From positions 59,438-123,437 of the forward strand of contig JADKDU010000007.1 in the NCBI GenBank assembly GCA_016714495.1: DNA of 64,000 nucleotides. The letters are read 5' to 3'. Numbering within the stretch: position 1 is the stretch's first letter; each line of letters starts with the position of its first letter. A model generated the notes under the pieces. It made no database searches. It was not told where the DNA came from and saw only the letters and a list, made by a program, of their open reading frames with translations. Shown here piece after piece: positions 55,866 to 64,000 of this stretch. Origin of the DNA: Hyphomonadaceae bacterium. Its GTDB lineage: Bacteria > Pseudomonadota > Alphaproteobacteria > Caulobacterales > Hyphomonadaceae. The position numbers and the translations under genes were made by a program.

Positions 55866-56117
55866 TCGAATTGTCGAAATTTCCCTGTCGGGATTCGTGT
55901 CGCGCGGATTGCGCAAGTGCAGCATTCGCCGTGTCTTTTAAGTCGAATTTCTCGAAATCCCTACGTGATCGGCGCGATCTCTGTTGACGGGAGCGTAAGT
56001 CAGGCAGCAGGCTCAGACCGCGCCAACCGGCGCTATAACAACGCGGAGTCGCTGGCGTTCGCAAATAAAAAAATCGGAACGCTGCGGGAGCATCCGCCAT
56101 TGGGGAGATCGCGAATT

Positions 56118-58790
56118 ATGGCGCAGCATTGTCGTATTCCGTTCGTGAGCCTGCTTGCCTTGGGCGCAGCCATGCCTGCCTTCGCGCAGGAAGTTCCGCA
56201 AGCCAAGCCGCAGGCCGACGATGACCGCGACGTCGTGGTCATCACCGCCAACAAGCGTGAAGAGACCGTCCAGGACATCGCCGTCGCCGTTACGGCCATC
56301 ACGTCCGACGCCAAGCAGGAGCGCGGCATCATCACCATTACCGACATGACTAACGTCACGCCGGGTCTGTCCTACACTCCCTCCCTTGAGCGCGTGACAC
56401 TGCGTGGCATCGGCCGCCTTTCCAACAGCATCGGCGCCGATCCGGGCGTCGCCAACTACACTGACGGTCTGTACTCATCCTTCGCCATAACGGCTGGCAG
56501 GGACGCGATGCTGATCGAGCGCGTCGAAATTCTGCGCGGCCCGCAAGGCACGCTCTATGGTCGTAACTCCATCGGCGGCGCGATCAACATCATCTCCAAG
56601 CGCCCTACCGACGAACTCGCGGTCGACCTCAAGCTCGGCGCGGGCAATTACGATTATGCCAACGCGGTCGCATCTGTGTCCGGCCCGATCACCGATTGGC
56701 TTCGCTATCGTGTAGCGGGTCAGCGCGAACAGCGCGACGGCGTCGACTACAACTACGGAACCGGTGAAAGCGAAAGCTGGGCGCTGAACGATTATTATCT
56801 TGAATTCCAGCTGGAAGGCGACATCGGCGACCGCTTCTCCTGGTGGTTCAAGACCAGTGAAACCGGCTTTAACAAGGCCGGCCCTCCGGGCGGCGCGACA
56901 TCGGTCTTCACCGACGCGCCGTACCTGCCGCAATTCAACACCAATGGCGCGACGGCTGTGAACCCGTCCTTCGCTTACAGCAATCCGTCCGTCATTTCGT
57001 TTACGCAGGCCGGCTCGCGTAGGGACAACCCGTTCGCGACAAATGGCGAGCGCGCATACAACTCGAACCGGGCGCAGATCGGCACGGTCGACCAGAATGA
57101 CGAGTATGTTCTGGAGGCCGTCTATTCGACCGACTGGTTCGACATCAAATACGTCGGCGGGTATGTGTACTTCGACTATAGCCGAAGCTTCGACGCAGAT
57201 GGCACGCCGATCAAGTCGGTGACGTACAACGCGATCACATCGCAGATCACCGCGGGTCCCTGCGCGGCTTTCGGCGCGAACCAGTTGCGCGGCTTCCCGA
57301 CTTCAACGCTGACGTCAGTTGGCGGTGGCGGTTGCATCACGGGCGCGGCTCCACGCACGATCTTCCCAAATTCCACGGACACCTACGGGGAGAGCCGCGC
57401 CTTCTACTCCAACGAGATCAACCTGATTTCCACGATGGACGGTCCGCTGCAGTGGATCGGCGGCATCTACCAGTACCAGGAAAACAACAAACAGCCTGGC
57501 CTGCAGCTCACGCTCGACGACGAGCCGCTGGCTGGCAGCTACCTAAACCCGACGACTGCCAGCGTCATCGCGAATCCAAACCGCTATCTGCAGTACTTCA
57601 GCAACACCGGCCTGTATAACGCCTATGGCGTATATGGTCAGGCGGACTACACGCTGAACGATCAATTGAAGTTCACCGCCGGCGTGCGGTATTCCAAGGA
57701 CATCAAGGAGTCGAAGGAAGAGGGCTTCGTCGCCTGCTACATCCTCTGCTCGGGGCTGGGCCTGCCGGCGGCATACGGGAACATCACTGCTATCGCGTTC
57801 GGGAACAGGTTGACGGCGACGCAAGCAACTGACGGATACACCGCCGCCCTGGATAACCGCGGCTTCGCGGTTCGCCGCCTCAAAGGCGACTGGGAAGCGG
57901 TGACCGGCACGGCGGGTGTCGAATATCGTCCGTGGGACGATACTCTAACGTTCGCCAAATACTCACGCGGCTACAAGGCTGGCGGTTTCAACAACGTTGG
58001 CTTTGCCCGGAACCCTTACACGGAATCGGAGTTTGTCGATTCGTACGAAGCGGGCTGGAAGCAGACCTGGGCCGACTTCGGCCTCACGACCAACGCAGCG
58101 GTGTTCCTCTACAAATACACCGACGCGCAGGCCCCGCTCGCGATCGTGACCGAGGTAGCGGGTATCCGCACGGCAACCACAGCTTTCGTCAACGTGCCAG
58201 AAGTTGAAACCACGGGTTTCGAACTCGAAGCCAACTGGAGCCCGATCGATCCGCTGAACATTGGCTTCACTTATGCATATCTGAACGCCGAGATTACCGA
58301 AGCTGGCGTCTATACCGATCCGACGCGGGATGATCGTTGCGTCGGCGCGACCCCGACCTCGCGCGTCACCTGCAACGCCACGTTCACGACGCTTGTCGAT
58401 CCGGCATCTGTCCGTTCAGTTAAAGGCAACCAACTGTCTCAATCGCCGAAGAACAAGATCGCGCTGAATGCTTCGTATCGCTTCGAGATGGAAGATGGCT
58501 CCTACTTCCTGCCGACGGTCAGCTACTCCTGGCGCGACGAGTTCTACGGTTCGTTCTTCAACAACGACAACCAGATCTCGCCCGCCTACGATAACCTCGA
58601 CGCACGTCTGAACTGGAAATCCTCGGACGACTTGCTGGGCCTGACATTCTGGGTCCGCAACTTGACGGACGAAGCCCAGACAGCAAACGTCGGCGCCAAC
58701 AACTTCCGCAAGGATGACAATGCTCGGTACCAGACCTTCGACTTCACGCCGCCGCGTACATACGGCGTCGATCTGCTGATCCACTACTAG
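56118..58790 (+). CDS. TonB-dependent receptor
   Basis: Signal ending AFAQE, plug VVVITANKREETVQDIAV, RVEILRGPQGTLYGRNSIGG, C-terminal YGVDLLIHY. Confidence 0.9.
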   Translation: MAQHCRIPFVSLLALGAAMPAFAQEVPQAKPQADDDRDVVVITANKREETVQDIAVAVTAITSDAKQERGIITITDMTNVTPGLSYTPSLERVTLRGIGRLSNSIGADPGVANYTDGLYSSFAITAGRDAMLIERVEILRGPQGTLYGRNSIGGAINIISKRPTDELAVDLKLGAGNYDYANAVASVSGPITDWLRYRVAGQREQRDGVDYNYGTGESESWALNDYYLEFQLEGDIGDRFSWWFKTSETGFNKAGPPGGATSVFTDAPYLPQFNTNGATAVNPSFAYSNPSVISFTQAGSRRDNPFATNGERAYNSNRAQIGTVDQNDEYVLEAVYSTDWFDIKYVGGYVYFDYSRSFDADGTPIKSVTYNAITSQITAGPCAAFGANQLRGFPTSTLTSVGGGGCITGAAPRTIFPNSTDTYGESRAFYSNEINLISTMDGPLQWIGGIYQYQENNKQPGLQLTLDDEPLAGSYLNPTTASVIANPNRYLQYFSNTGLYNAYGVYGQADYTLNDQLKFTAGVRYSKDIKESKEEGFVACYILCSGLGLPAAYGNITAIAFGNRLTATQATDGYTAALDNRGFAVRRLKGDWEAVTGTAGVEYRPWDDTLTFAKYSRGYKAGGFNNVGFARNPYTESEFVDSYEAGWKQTWADFGLTTNAAVFLYKYTDAQAPLAIVTEVAGIRTATTAFVNVPEVETTGFELEANWSPIDPLNIGFTYAYLNAEITEAGVYTDPTRDDRCVGATPTSRVTCNATFTTLVDPASVRSVKGNQLSQSPKNKIALNASYRFEMEDGSYFLPTVSYSWRDEFYGSFFNNDNQISPAYDNLDARLNWKSSDDLLGLTFWVRNLTDEAQTANVGANNFRKDDNARYQTFDFTPPRTYGVDLLIHY

Positions 58791-59424: not shown

Positions 59425-59943
59425 CTAGGCTTTGGCGCCCATCGCCACATCCACCATAATCTCGCCTGAGATCGCCTCCAGCGCGTCCTGCACGGCGGCG
59501 GCCTTCAGCCCCTCGGGCAAGCGCAGATGCGCCGCCATGTGGAAGAGTTGGCCGCCCGCATGCGCCTCTGCGCTCAGCCATGTCTCGAACGTCTCGATGT
59601 TGGCGCCGAGGCTGCTCACCGCCGCCGTCACCTGGTTGACGATGCCCGGCCGGTCCTGCCCCACCAGCGAGAATTCCAGCGTCTCGCCCGCCGCGCCCGC
59701 GTCCTCGACGGCCGGCGCGATGCGCACCTCCAACCCCGCCGCATCGACAGCCGCCACGGCCGCGCGCAACGCATCGACCTTGCCCTCCGCCAGTTCGACC
59801 AGAACGGAGCCGAGATAAAGCCCGCCCAGCCGCGACAGATGGCTCTCCAGCCAGTTGCCGCCCGCCGACAAGACAGCCGCCGCCAACGCCTTGGTCAGGC
59901 CGGGCCTGTCACTGCCGACGACGCTCAAGACCAACAACGCCAT
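59425..59943 (-). CDS. ACT-domain protein (glycine cleavage system regulator GcvR-like)
   Basis: Two ACT repeats: LLVLSVVGSDRPGLTKALAAAV and FSLVGQDRPGIVNQVTAAV. Confidence 0.7.
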   Translation of the reverse strand: MALLVLSVVGSDRPGLTKALAAAVLSAGGNWLESHLSRLGGLYLGSVLVELAEGKVDALRAAVAAVDAAGLEVRIAPAVEDAGAAGETLEFSLVGQDRPGIVNQVTAAVSSLGANIETFETWLSAEAHAGGQLFHMAAHLRLPEGLKAAAVQDALEAISGEIMVDVAMGAKA

Positions 59944-60051
59944 GGATAACCTCGCGATGGAACAGTTGAGCGGCATTGTTAGGCCAAGGCGCATCGCCGC
60001 GCCATGGTCTGCGCGGCGCCTGTCTCACGCCGGCAAGTGTGCGAGGGAGGC

Positions 60052-60840
60052 TCAGCGCCCCGGTGAATTCACCGACGTGGCGCCGATGGACGCCAGCTGC
60101 TGTTCGGCGTCGTAAGCGGGAAAGGCTTCCCGCACGGAGATCGTGTCGGGGAGGACGTAGAACACCCCGCCCGCCTTCTTGAAGATCGGCTTGATCGTCT
60201 TGCTGTAGAAGGTCGACGAGACGTTGATGCAGCCGTGCGTGATGCGGTTGTCGTCCACCGTCTTCGAGGACAGGCGCGTCTTGCGCTTCTCCGCTTTCGG
60301 AGCGCCTTTGGGCAGCGCGTGGATCGAGATGGCGGTCGCATAGTCGACCCATAGCACTGTCTCGCCGCCGGCTGCGGGGCCATAGCCGACAACGAAGCGA
60401 CCGGCCGGCGTGGTGCGATCTTCGGCGGGAATATCCTTGAGTTCGCGGTCGGCGACGCCTTCGGCGGAATAATCGCCCATGGCCGAGCCGAGCAGAGCGG
60501 GTGAAGTCGCCTTGCGCCTGCCCTTGGCGTCGAACACCACAACCTGCGCCGCGACCTTGTCGACAATGGCGAATGGCAGGTCGCGATTGTCGCCCGTCGC
60601 GATGATCCAGGCGACGATCTCGGCAGCGTCTTCAGACAAAGGTAGTGCGGGCGCGACTTCGGGCGCCTTGGCGGTTTTGGCGACCGGCTCCGCCATGGCG
60701 CTGAGACCAGACGCGCCGCCAAAGGCCAGGGCGAGGACCGCCACACGAAGCACCGTTTTCAACGCGATAGGAATGCCGACCTCCAAAGTCAGGCTGCTTT
60801 GCGTTTGTGGATGGGCCGGACCCTGCGGGGGCCCGGCCAC
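60052..60840 (-). CDS. L,D-transpeptidase (YkuD) catalytic-domain protein
   Basis: Signal LRVAVLALAFGGASGLSAMA and catalytic ITHGCINV motif. Start uncertain (GTG 60840 or TTG 60762). Confidence 0.75.
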   Translation of the reverse strand: MAGPPQGPAHPQTQSSLTLEVGIPIALKTVLRVAVLALAFGGASGLSAMAEPVAKTAKAPEVAPALPLSEDAAEIVAWIIATGDNRDLPFAIVDKVAAQVVVFDAKGRRKATSPALLGSAMGDYSAEGVADRELKDIPAEDRTTPAGRFVVGYGPAAGGETVLWVDYATAISIHALPKGAPKAEKRKTRLSSKTVDDNRITHGCINVSSTFYSKTIKPIFKKAGGVFYVLPDTISVREAFPAYDAEQQLASIGATSVNSPGR

Positions 60841-60878
60841 CAGCCAGATTAGTCTCTGACCATCCAGTTAGAACAGGG

Positions 60879-61235
60879 TCAACCCCGCGGCCTGCGCGCG
60901 GGCGTCGCCGGCTTCTCAAGTGCATCGATACGCGGCGTGAGCGTGTCGAGGCGCTGGTTGGCCGTGCGGGCTTCGGTGGCGGCGGCCTGGGCGGCGGAAT
61001 TGGCGGCGGCAGCCTGGCTCGAGGCCGAGGCGGCGGCGGCATTTCCCGCTTCGGCGCGCTGTGTGGCGGTCGTCACGCGGGCGTCGACCTGATCGATGCG
61101 GCTGTTCACGGCGGCGAACTTTTCATCGACATACTGGTTCGTTGCACAGGCAGTGGCGCTGAGGCCGCCCAGAATTATTACAGCGGCGACACGTGCGGTC
61201 GCGGCGTGGTTCTTCAACCAAGACATTTTCGGCAT
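60879..61235 (-). CDS. Lpp-like alanine-zipper lipoprotein
   Basis: ILGGLSATAC lipobox, then heptad-like FAAVNSRIDQVDARV...ANQRLDTLTPRIDAL flanking an Ala-rich core. Confidence 0.6.
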   Translation of the reverse strand: MPKMSWLKNHAATARVAAVIILGGLSATACATNQYVDEKFAAVNSRIDQVDARVTTATQRAEAGNAAAASASSQAAAANSAAQAAATEARTANQRLDTLTPRIDALEKPATPARRPRG

Positions 61236-61612
61236 CCTTTTTTCTCCCGTTGGAACGATCCCGAACGGGGTCGTTGGTACGCAATGGCGTTAGGCCTCCA
61301 GATACGCTCTGGGCCTGTGTGAAACGTGGAGGATGTCGACTTGTTCCGGGTGCGGACGATTCTCGTGCGAAGTTCCGCGCTGCCCGAAACTTGAGCGGCA
61401 CGTCGCTCCTCAACGGATTCAAGGCGGTGCTCGCGCGCAAACGAGCGCCGCATGCGGAGCTCATGATCTGGAGCGCTATCTCGGGCGAAATGTTTCCCGT
61501 TTCGTGCGACCGCCGTGTGACGCTTTGCGTGATGATAGGCGCACCCCGCGCCCACCCTTGCCTTCGCGCCCGACACTGACCATCAAGGATGCTCTCTGTG
61601 GGGAGTTTTCCA

Positions 61613-62602
61613 ATGCGGCAGGTCCTGCGTTTCCTGGTCCTTGTGATGGCGATGGCCTTTGGCCTGCCCGCTCACGCGCAGGCGCCCGCCGCAGTGAAGG
61701 TCGGGATGTACATCAACGACATCCAGTCGATCGACCTGCACAGCTATTCCTTCGTCGCCGACGTCTATCTCTGGTTCCGCGACACCGACGCGGAGATCGT
61801 GCCCGGGTCGACGTTCGAATGGATGAACATGTTCGCCCCTGACGATCATGTTCAGACCGACATCTACCCCGAACCCGTCGACCAGCCTGACGGCACGCAA
61901 TACCAGGTCTTTCGCCATCAAGGTCCCTTCGCAGCGAAGTTCTCGGTGAAGACCTATCCCTTCGACGCCCACAATCTCACCATCGAGATAGAAGACCAGG
62001 AGTGGAACACCTCCCGTCTCGTCTATGTGGTCGATCAGGTGACGATGAACCCCGACATCGAACTGCCCGGCTTCGTGATTGGCGAGCCGAAACTCGAAGT
62101 CCGCAATCGTCCGTACCCGACGAATTTCGGCGACACGACGATGAGCCAGCCGGAGACCTATTCCCGCGCCATCGTCTCGATCCCGATCTCTCGCCCTGTC
62201 GTATCAGGCGTCACGAAATCCCTGCTTCCCGTTTTCATCGTTGTTCTCGTCGCCGCCGCAGCCCTGCTGCTGAAGCCCGAGCACATCGAGGCGCGCGTCG
62301 GTCTTTCGATCACCGCCCTTCTCACGCTCGTCGCTCTGCAGTTCAGCGCGCAAGCAGCCCTGCCCGACGTCGGCTATCTCCTGATGCTCGACCAGATCTA
62401 CCTTGCCTCCTACGGCTTCGTGCTTCTGGTCGTCGCCCTTCTGGTGATGACGACCGGCAATGCCGAAGACAAAAACCAGTTGGCGGCCGCGCATAGTCTC
62501 GCCAAGGGCGGGCTGGGCACGGCGGTCCTGTCCATCCTGCTGTATGCGACCGTCATCGGCCTCGTTCTGTGGCTCAACCTGAATGCGCCCGACGCGGCCT
62601 GA
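61613..62602 (+). CDS. prokaryotic pentameric ligand-gated ion channel (GLIC/ELIC superfamily)
   Basis: Signal MRQVLRFLVLVMAMAFGLPAHA. Extracellular domain VKVGMYINDIQSIDLHSYSFVADVYLWFRDTD and loop KTYPFDAHNLTIEIE. Four TM helices, with M2 EARVGLSITALLTLVALQF collinear with GLIC EANVTLVVSTLIAHIAFN. Confidence 0.75.
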   Translation: MRQVLRFLVLVMAMAFGLPAHAQAPAAVKVGMYINDIQSIDLHSYSFVADVYLWFRDTDAEIVPGSTFEWMNMFAPDDHVQTDIYPEPVDQPDGTQYQVFRHQGPFAAKFSVKTYPFDAHNLTIEIEDQEWNTSRLVYVVDQVTMNPDIELPGFVIGEPKLEVRNRPYPTNFGDTTMSQPETYSRAIVSIPISRPVVSGVTKSLLPVFIVVLVAAAALLLKPEHIEARVGLSITALLTLVALQFSAQAALPDVGYLLMLDQIYLASYGFVLLVVALLVMTTGNAEDKNQLAAAHSLAKGGLGTAVLSILLYATVIGLVLWLNLNAPDAA

Positions 62603-62736
62603 CGGCGTCCGGACTTAAAACGAACCTCACTAATCCCTCTTTCGCCCCAATTCGCGCCGTGGCGCGGCCATTATCGGCTGCGACAAGTTGTGCATCGCGG
62701 GACAATGACCTGGCGCCGCGGGAAAGGGGACTTGTC

Positions 62737-62925
62737 GTGAAAACTTCGATCCGCCTTGCGCTCACTTCACTTTTGGTTTGCGGCGTCACTTTCGCCGCTT
62801 CCGGCGCTCCCCTTCCCTTCATGCCGAAACCGCAGACGGTCAGCGCCACGCTCGACGCCCCGCTTCCGCCGGCCGAAGCGGGTCCCGGCGCTCAGATCGC
62901 TCTCACGACTTTCAGCCGGCAATAG
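62737..62925 (+). CDS. small secreted protein (hypothetical)
   Basis: GTG 62737 follows GGGAAAGGGGA. VKTSIRLALTSLLVCGVTFAASG is a signal peptide; 62 aa, Pro-rich. Confidence 0.3.
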   Translation: MKTSIRLALTSLLVCGVTFAASGAPLPFMPKPQTVSATLDAPLPPAEAGPGAQIALTTFSRQ

Positions 62926-62957
62926 CGTCTCGCCATCATCACTCCTGGGGACTAGCC

Positions 62958-63719
62958 ATGAAAACCCGCACAGCCATCGCCGCCATCCTGGCTCTCGCTA
63001 CGGCCGGCGCCGCCACGACCACGACCGCCTTCGCCAAGCCGCCCCGCGCGCCGGCGATCCACTCCTACATCCTGCTTGATCGCACCGGCTCGATGGAGCC
63101 GATCTGGTCGGAAGCGCTCTCTTCCGTGAATGCTTACGCTGATGGCCTCGCCACACTCGATGGCGGACCGCGCGTCGATGCCGACATCACGCTCGCCGCC
63201 TTCGACGCACAGGAAGGCCTGCAATTCGAGGTGCTGCGGCAGGACGTCGACGCCAGCGAATGGCGCGACGTCACCAATCGCGAAATCTCTCCGCGCGGCA
63301 TGACGCCTCTTTATGACGCGATCGGCCGAATGGTCTCGCTTGCCGAGAAGGACAAGCCTGAGAAAGCCGTCATCGTCATCATGACTGATGGCGAGGAAAA
63401 TTCTTCCAAGGAAATGACGAAAGCCTCCGCCAAGGCCGCGCTCGATCGCGTCCGCGCGAAGGGTTGGGAAGTCGTCTTCCTCGGCACCGAGTTCTCCAAC
63501 TTCGATGACGCCACCGGCGTCGGCCAAAGCGCCTCGCGCAACATGGCCGTCTCAAAAGACCAACTCGAGGACTCGATGCGTCGTCTCTCCGACAAGTCGA
63601 AAGCCTACGCCTCAGGCGCGGCGCCGACGGTGGAATTCAACGCCGAAGATCGCGCCGCCGCCAAGGAAGAAGAAGTCAAGCAAAGGACCAACAGCCCGCC
63701 GCAACGCGGCAACCCGTAG
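62958..63719 (+). CDS. secreted von Willebrand factor type A domain protein
   Basis: Signal MKTRTAIAAILALATAGAATTTTAFA. MIDAS elements LLDRTGSM, TPLYDAIG, VIVIMTDGEEN. Confidence 0.75.
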   Translation: MKTRTAIAAILALATAGAATTTTAFAKPPRAPAIHSYILLDRTGSMEPIWSEALSSVNAYADGLATLDGGPRVDADITLAAFDAQEGLQFEVLRQDVDASEWRDVTNREISPRGMTPLYDAIGRMVSLAEKDKPEKAVIVIMTDGEENSSKEMTKASAKAALDRVRAKGWEVVFLGTEFSNFDDATGVGQSASRNMAVSKDQLEDSMRRLSDKSKAYASGAAPTVEFNAEDRAAAKEEEVKQRTNSPPQRGNP

Positions 63720-63903
63720 GTCAAATAGCGTCGAGGGACGCCGCGGGTCCGCTTCTCCTGTAACGGCAAGGCAGGATCCGGATTCGGCCTGCGGCGATTC
63801 TCCCCGCCGCGGGCCGAATTGCATTTGATGCGGACCTCTTGAGTTTGAGCGCGGATTGTCGACCTATGCCGGACAGTGGGGAAGCTGCCGGGGAGCCACG
63901 ACC

Positions 63904-64000
63904 ATGATCCACCAGAAGACATCGACTTCAGCGGGTTTGGCGATCGCCAGCGCCTTCTTCATGTTGACCGCATGCCAGCCACAAACCGCAGCAACGCCTG
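63904..64000 (+). CDS. lipoprotein, N-terminal part only (runs off the window)
   Basis: GGGGAG then ATG 63904. MIHQKTSTSAGLAIASAFFMLTAC lipobox. Confidence 0.35.
   Translation, partial: MIHQKTSTSAGLAIASAFFMLTACQPQTAATP

Follow-up and report, generated by a model that had tools for sequence, protein, structure and literature searches.

A GLIC/ELIC-type ion channel gene beside a probably autonomous periplasmic vWA module in a Hyphomonadaceae bacterium

Does a bacterial receptor-channel gene that lies beside genes for secreted proteins encode one part of a larger machine, or do these genes only share a neighbourhood? The question is raised by the end of a 64,000-nucleotide stretch of contig JADKDU010000007.1 (Hyphomonadaceae bacterium, assembly GCA_016714495.1; this whole stretch is referred to here as the window), where a gene for a ligand-gated ion channel of the pentameric kind (pLGIC) is followed by genes for a small secreted protein and a von Willebrand factor A (vWA) protein, an arrangement that the original prediction took for a possible ligand-capture plus channel unit. 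A survey of these channels (PMC4795631) describes the biological role of any prokaryotic pLGIC as not known.

We checked every sequence statement about the locus against the open reading frame (ORF) map and the raw sequence, which revealed three co-oriented plus-strand genes, the channel gene (61613-62602), the small ORF (62737-62925) and the vWA ORF (62958-63719), with gaps of 134 bp and 32 bp that agree with the roughly 135 and 32 bp first given. All three products have signal-peptide-like N-termini, again as claimed (channel ...GLPAHAQA/PAA, small ORF ...TFAAS/GAPLPF, vWA protein ...TTTAFA/KPP). The quoted motifs and ORFs are all present, but the cluster does not end at 63719, as a lipoprotein gene that starts at 63904 had been overlooked. 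Our best explanation, to which we give a probability of roughly 0.6, is that a GLIC/ELIC-type channel gene lies beside an autonomous periplasmic module and that any coupling between the two is facultative. The channel gene product would be the subunit of a homopentameric, periplasm-facing ligand-gated channel in the inner membrane of a Hyphomonadaceae-type alphaproteobacterium, while the small signal-peptide protein, the vWA protein with its metal ion-dependent adhesion site (MIDAS) and the Cys-rich lipoprotein would make up a separate periplasmic module, one that appears to have its own upstream element and to exist without the channel in sister lineages.

The channel and its predicted pore and ligand site

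The channel ORF opens at ATG 61589 and stops at 62600-62602; we place its start at 61613 (MRQVLRF...) because the N-termini of aligned homologues support a Met there, which gives a protein of 329 aa with a signal peptide (residues 1-24), a beta-sandwich ectodomain (residues ~25-195) and then M1-M4. Searching the PDB with this single sequence (phmmer) returned a GABAA beta3/alpha5 chimera at 6e-15 and ELIC at ~1e-10, and a profile of 25 channel-family members gave E-values from 4e-27 to 1e-16 (ELIC-GABAA chimera 4e-27, ELIC 3.5e-24, GLIC 5e-17) in an alignment that spans channel positions 37-307, nearly the full length. Within NCBIfam, the channel matched TIGR00860 (LIC) at 1.6e-14 and LGIC_1 at 5e-12. 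These E-values are significant but the curated cut-offs are missed, both in Pfam (PF02932, 23.9 vs 28.1 bits; PF02931, 20.8 vs 26) and in NCBIfam (TIGR00860, 53.5 vs 280; NF033918, 45.8 vs 500), and we therefore regard the channel as part of a divergent subfamily rather than as a non-member; some of its homologues carry precomputed PF02931 or PF02932 matches.

Structure prediction pointed the same way. The AlphaFold2 (AF2) monomer model (predicted local distance difference test, pLDDT, 80; predicted template modelling score, pTM, 0.69) has a signal helix, strands within residues 26-193 and four helices (M1 196-219, M2 225-247, M3 253-283, M4 291-324) with a 7-residue M3-M4 loop, and Foldseek matched this model to pLGICs only, over the full length (GABAA, GLIC, ELIC and GluCl, E 2.5e-17 to 2e-15). 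Profile, AF2 and Foldseek results agree on the predicted collinearity with GLIC and ELIC (ectodomain, M1-M3, short loop, M4), and the ORF matches in both profile and structure searches, with only the curated Pfam and NCBIfam cut-offs missed. The assignment of 61613-62602 as a genuine pLGIC gene, whose product is related to the nicotinic and GABA receptor channels, is far beyond chance. Though uncharacterised, this product belongs among the ordinary members of the known prokaryotic pLGIC family, with 152 homologues of which every named one is a 'hypothetical protein'. The subfamily is not rare (721 clusters at 50% identity with E<=1e-30), and the pLGIC superfamily comprises 11,706 clusters at E<=1e-3. 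Some Methyloceanibacter-type and other alphaproteobacterial loci carry tandem pLGIC gene pairs (L054:2351-3955 and L070:5902-8057), which could encode heteromeric channels.

Both motif strings quoted for the channel, KTYPFDAHNLTIEIE around the Pro-loop and IEARVGLSITALLTLVALQ in M2, were found. The Pro-loop (61955-61966, Y115-P116-F117-D118) is the beta6-beta7, Cys-loop-equivalent element without flanking cysteines; its YPFD aligns to FPFD of ELIC and YPLD of GABAA beta3, and across 25 homologues P, F and D do not vary. The M2 pore helix (62285-62353) aligns gap-free with M2 of GABAA and ELIC and, in the pore numbering of GLIC, which itself has Glu at -2' (PMC3590989), reads E226 (-2'), A227 (-1'), R228 (0'), G230 (2'), T234 (6'), L237 (9'), A241 (13') and F244 (16'), with R228 and L237 invariant in the same 25 homologues. 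The family pattern is [VI][ED][AG]R[VI]GL[SAG]IT, such that -2' is Glu or Asp throughout. An acidic ring at this cytoplasmic pore mouth makes cation selectivity a reasonable inference, and the channel is probably cation-selective, as predicted from its GLIC-type Glu; the Glu is indeed present, but A-R at -1'/0' resembles anion channels, and the resulting hybrid E-A-R motif leaves the selectivity uncertain.

The ligand pocket can be read in a similar way. By alignment, E127 in loop B corresponds to ELIC Glu131 and GABAA beta E155, while Y168 and Y183 correspond to ELIC Tyr174 and Phe187, the principal-side aromatics (beta9 Tyr, beta10 aromatic), and neither W54 nor R56 in loop D varies among the channel homologues. 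Invariant acidic residues of the ectodomain are D36, D50, E69, D93, E127, D128, D141 and D174. An amine contact of the loop-B Glu and the roles of the pocket residues have been described (PMC3119659). The kept residues (E127, Y168, Y183, W54/R56) suggest a small cationic or zwitterionic ligand, and the channel probably opens on such a periplasmic ligand at the subunit interface, although loop-B Phe133 of ELIC is replaced here by Gln129.

The neighbouring module and its signals

The vWA ORF (62958-63719) encodes a secreted protein of 253 aa that contains DRTGSM, TPLYDAIG and MTDGEEN and shows a variant MIDAS, D41-R-T43-G-S45, T116 and D144, with Thr in place of the first Ser. Its MIDAS residues (D-x-T-x-S ... 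T ... D) do not vary in sets of 15 and of 20 homologues, and the description as a MIDAS-bearing vWA protein stands. Pfam VWA matched at 1.4e-4, with 22.5 bits against a gathering threshold of 23.8, and VWA_CoxE and VWA_2 matched as well; the PDB held no sequence-level relative at E<=0.01. The AF2 model of the protein (pTM 0.65) alternates strands and helices, and its top Foldseek matches (MIC2, ANTXR2, Mac-1, the alpha2 I domain, NorD, VWF A1 and Ku; E 9e-6 to 1e-4) are all vWA, integrin I-type or vWA-fold domains. There is also a conserved helical C-terminal tail, and the Sec signal seen here is a lipobox in some of the relatives. Conservation is higher for the vWA protein than for the channel, at 75% vs 55% identity in L017 and 63% vs 48% in L029, the locus of the culturable Hirschia maritima DSM 19733.

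The small ORF (62737-62925) starts with GTG and encodes 62 aa, of which 8 are Pro, with the N-terminus MKTSIRLALTSLLVCGITFAAS/GAPLPF. It is a real gene: its first 28 residues are conserved in >40 loci, and this part shows synonymous changes, TCG/AGC serine switches among them. This bears out the predicted Pro-rich secreted peptide as a real, secreted and co-oriented gene, whose product may be either secreted or membrane-anchored; a lipobox was rejected, as the Cys is not conserved. The Pro/Ala-rich tail varies in sequence and length, with relatives of 50-87 aa overall, and searches of Pfam, NCBIfam and PDB gave no match. At Hirschia-type loci, a periplasmic rhodanese stands in place of the small ORF, and the rhodanese and vWA genes overlap by 4 bp in L020 and L029. 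This rhodanese (PF00581, 2e-11; L020:7048-7647, L021, L029:7075-7641, L158 and L120) has a signal peptide and an unusual CNNNF active-site loop.

The fourth conserved gene, of which the window holds only the 5' end (63904-64000, plus strand), starts MIHQKTSTSAGLAIASAFFMLTAC... with the lipobox LTAC. Relatives of the lipoprotein, ~205-215 aa long, conserve 4 Cys as well as the motifs EFPFMP and IGLQLFPG, and full-length copies lie in L002 and in L081 (L081:4856-5500). L081 is a contig from a metagenome, and the proteins of its channel gene, small ORF and vWA gene are 100% identical in sequence to those of the window. It has 141 homologues, every one 'hypothetical', and no match in Pfam, NCBIfam, PDB or PADLOC. 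PADLOC matched none of the four proteins, and we rejected an anti-phage defence system.

The 134-bp gap between the channel gene and the small ORF holds a conserved non-coding block (62629-62703) with the pattern ACTAATCCC..TTTCGCCCCAATT..CGCCG..GGCC..ATC..CTGCGACA..ATCGCGGGAC, in which GTTTCGCCCCAATT is invariant and CTGCGACA / ATCGCG conserved; it is kept in 31 aligned loci and occurs once per locus. A structured RNA or riboswitch in this gap was rejected (RNAalifold over the 31 loci, -0.9 kcal/mol and no covarying pair), Rfam has no family there, and the single-sequence fold of the block was no better than shuffles (z = 0.24). With RNA structure, covariation and Rfam family all lacking, the block is most readily taken for a promoter or operator that acts at the DNA level, probably that of the small ORF-vWA unit. 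A regulon site was rejected as well, since the 64-kb window has no second copy of the conserved TTTCGCCCCAATT. A complete Hyphomonadaceae chromosome carries a 3-kb insertion between the channel gene and small ORF-vWA (L009:6921-9900), and there the element stays with the small ORF. We found no terminator-like structure between the channel stop and the small ORF, which, given the shared orientation, makes read-through co-expression possible. A sigma-70 consensus was likewise absent from 60800-64000, which is uninformative because the host may use other promoter types.

A plus-strand hairpin (63781-63820) with a GC-rich stem of 16 bp (-35.7 kcal/mol, z = -4.2) stands between the vWA and lipoprotein genes, and an equivalent with compensatory sequence changes is present in all seven relatives checked. 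It is likely a terminator, an attenuator or an mRNA-stability element, and it accounts for a sub-threshold Rfam match to CrfA (E 0.56).

Linkage, coupling and descent

To evaluate the neighbourhood from the channel side, we scanned 80 channel loci, one genome per species, with tblastn and hidden Markov model searches for neighbours. At 21 of these species-level loci, a same-strand vWA gene lies no more than 3.3 kb away, and at one more (L044) the lipoprotein gene is the only partner, 32 bp upstream of the channel. A neighbour-joining tree revealed one channel clade that is fully linked (17/17 species-level loci: L001-L014, L016, L017 and L019), with small ORF-vWA downstream in all, channel identity from 89% down to 55%, and the lipoprotein gene next wherever the contig extends far enough. 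The sister loci of this clade (L015, L018, L022, L031 and L042) have no same-strand vWA partner, the only candidate being a distant vWA-like gene ~4 kb off on the opposite strand in L031. A second clade mixes unlinked loci with channel-rhodanese-vWA, vWA-lipoprotein-channel (L026) and lipoprotein-channel (L044), and the other half of the tree (Hyphomicrobium, Methyloceanibacter and others) shows no linkage at all.

Counting the channel-small-vWA-lipoprotein order of the window, the linkage thus takes four gene orders, and it does so in two chromosomal contexts. One runs DapF..ACT..GFA, channel-small-vWA-lipoprotein, DUF3574 (minus strand) and BipA, and the other has PPase-ArgG (minus strand) followed by channel-rhodanese-vWA. 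Upstream synteny among the 17 fully linked loci is limited to ACT in 6, GFA in 7 and DapF in 7, all of them among L001-L009 where channel identity is at least 76%, such that the downstream linkage outlasts it. The neighbourhood is therefore conserved in relatives, and an adjacency that recurs in four gene orders and two contexts and outlasts other synteny is more than chance or simple frozen synteny.

The view from the vWA gene, obtained by scanning metagenomes with a vWA profile (80 loci), is different. Among the 24 testable close loci, defined as vWA-lipoprotein loci whose upstream sequence extends for 1.2 kb or more, a channel is present in 12 (L081, L084-L090, L093, L107, L108 and L113); L117 and L118 also have one, on contigs that end downstream too early for this count. 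The channel gene is split over two frames in L108:3647-4662 and L079:5887-6816, through either a frameshift pseudogene or an assembly error, and if real the splits would fit ongoing channel loss.

Several observations, most of them from this second scan, weigh against a functional tie between channel and module. The other 12 close loci have 1.2-5 kb of upstream sequence and no channel (L091, L094, L097-L103, L112, L115 and L116), and their small ORF-vWA-lipoprotein-DUF3574-BipA series is otherwise intact. Neither a pLGIC remnant nor a replacement channel was found upstream of these vWA genes, where a cation symporter-like gene and other unrelated genes lie instead. L120 has ArgG and rhodanese-vWA and no channel, and among the distant vWA homologues (L120-L160, 57-72% identity) 40 of 41 lack the channel, with L158 the only one to have it. 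At these distant loci the vWA genes are single or, in many cases, tandem vWA-vWA pairs (e.g. L138:3053-3946 and L138:4136-5747), and at 28/41 the gene immediately upstream encodes a desaturase-like membrane protein with histidine boxes, which suggests a different, channel-independent role for the vWA family. From the channel side, neither partner is present at 58/80 loci, L025 reads channel-x-BipA without vWA or lipoprotein, and much of the linkage lies inside one family, the Hyphomonadaceae, and could be inherited synteny. The conserved element at 62629-62703 belongs to the vWA unit with or without a channel. Our best explanation as a whole is further limited by the low confidence of the vWA structure model (pLDDT 59) and by the hybrid pore motif and altered loop B described above. 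Co-occurrence of pLGIC and vWA genes, which the original prediction asked to have examined, thus holds in one channel clade and breaks down when counted from the vWA gene; a reciprocal pattern, in which the partner never occurs without the channel, was not found. The dependence is asymmetric: one channel clade always has the module, and the module does not need the channel.

How these facts are explained depends on how much the adjacency is taken to mean. Channel and module may be neighbours by descent only, functionally unrelated genes whose ancestral Hyphomonadaceae adjacency near BipA or ArgG has decayed through loss of synteny and independent losses. We consider this a serious contender that still falls appreciably short of an even chance. 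It fits the finding that each part is dispensable (half of the close vWA loci lack the channel, and L025 lacks the vWA unit), as well as the module's own upstream element, a vWA family far wider than the pairing (1730 homologues), and flanking DUF3574 and BipA genes that are as persistently syntenic as the channel. It sits less well with a linkage that outlasts upstream synteny down to 47-55% channel identity, with an adjacency that survives reordering (vWA downstream in most loci, the order reversed in L026 and L044), and with two different chromosomal contexts in which same strand and short gaps are kept throughout. At the other extreme stands an obligate machine in which the MIDAS of the vWA protein captures a metal or acidic ligand and hands it over or gates the channel, all from one operon of three to four genes. 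The invariant MIDAS residues, the periplasmic location of all products, the 100% linkage in one channel clade and the lack of a terminator after the channel gene would suit it, as would modulation by divalent cations, which is reported for ELIC (PMC3502511) and DeCLIC (PMC9897478). We nonetheless hold it to be quite improbable. In half of its close and nearly all of its distant relatives the vWA unit is complete and conserved without an adjacent channel, and it is preceded by an element of its own; the vWA gene is set apart from the lipoprotein gene by a strong conserved hairpin, and other lineages have a rhodanese instead of the small ORF. Much the same evidence weakens the originally proposed unit of ligand capture plus channel, namely the module without channel in 12/24 loci, the reverse case in L025 and the separate element in the 134-bp gap.

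The explanation that we prefer, a channel beside an autonomous module with facultative coupling, lies between these two. The channel could be co-expressed with the module by read-through, and the most likely form of coupling would have the vWA protein or the lipoprotein act as a periplasmic accessory of the channel ectodomain that would present a ligand or dock via the MIDAS site, in analogy to the PBP-II and Cache partners of other bacterial pLGICs. That such facultative functional coupling exists at all we rate only somewhat below an even chance. More tentative still is the specific proposal, suggested by gene context, that the channel may have recruited an existing module (vWA protein, disulfide-rich lipoprotein, and 'GAPLPF' peptide or rhodanese) as an extracellular accessory or ligand-presenting complex.

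Other features surround the channel gene on its upstream side. An intergenic stretch (61236-61612) separates it from a divergent Lpp-like lipoprotein gene (60879-61235, minus strand; Pfam Alanine_zipper) and is the presumed site of the channel promoter. Further upstream, a YkuD L,D-transpeptidase-like gene (60052-60840) and a tandem-ACT protein gene (59425-59994) both lie on the minus strand, and a TonB-dependent receptor is encoded by ORF 55917-58790 with a probable start near 56118. ACT is found upstream in six relatives, whereas YkuD-like and Lpp-like genes are found there only in L004.

Relation to known channel systems

The claim that the pairing is undescribed agrees with what we found in the literature. 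A survey of prokaryotic pLGICs (PMC549065) mentions PBP-II and Cache neighbours only and no vWA neighbour, PMC4795631 does not mention a vWA pairing and, in a term search, contains neither 'operon' nor 'neighbo', and a full-text literature search that combined prokaryotic pLGICs with von Willebrand returned nothing. As a lead, the vWA-lipoprotein neighbourhood is new and can be tested, but it does not yet amount to a demonstrated system. If it reflects function, it offers a concrete entry point to the gating, localisation or ligand response of the channel, and recruitment, if true, would provide the first genomic handle on the in vivo signal of a bacterial pLGIC. If it is only inherited synteny, the window adds one more uncharacterised pLGIC to a subfamily of ~700 clusters at 50% identity.

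Compared with ELIC (Erwinia/Dickeya chrysanthemi), the channel is alike in size, signal peptide, Cys-less Pro-loop ectodomain, M1-M4 and short M3-M4 loop, and it keeps the loop-B Glu, the beta9 Tyr, the beta10 aromatic and an acidic ring at the cytoplasmic pore mouth. It differs in that identity is ~20%, Phe133 has become Gln129, the acid stands at -2' (E-A-R) rather than at -1' (S-E-R), and the genomic partners are others. With proton-gated GLIC (Gloeobacter violaceus), it shares Glu at -2', a hydroxylated 6' residue (Thr here, Ser in GLIC) and a hydrophobic 9', along with Foldseek (E ~5e-16, template modelling score 0.53-0.57) and profile (E 5e-17) matches, whereas 0' is Arg here and Asn in GLIC, 2' is Gly here and Thr in GLIC, and GLIC has no described vWA neighbour.

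Eukaryotic channels with an extracellular, MIDAS-containing vWA accessory include CaV with alpha2delta and TMEM16A with CLCA1, and a recruited module would be a prokaryotic counterpart of such auxiliary subunits. These channels belong to other superfamilies with homology only at the vWA fold, and the interaction at our locus is hypothetical. A precedent is found among bacterial pLGICs whose genes stand in predicted operons with genes for PBP-II or Cache proteins (Tasneem et al. 2004, PMC549065). As there, the channel gene and a gene for a secreted binding-domain protein are conserved neighbours on one strand, and the gene-context evidence is of the same kind; unlike there, the partner carries a MIDAS vWA domain rather than a small-molecule-binding PBP or Cache domain and comes with a Cys-rich lipoprotein and either a small peptide or a rhodanese, in a module that stands on its own and occurs far more widely than the pairing. 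Should the link hold, the small-molecule-binding PBP and Cache partners already described for pLGICs would be joined by one of a protein type.

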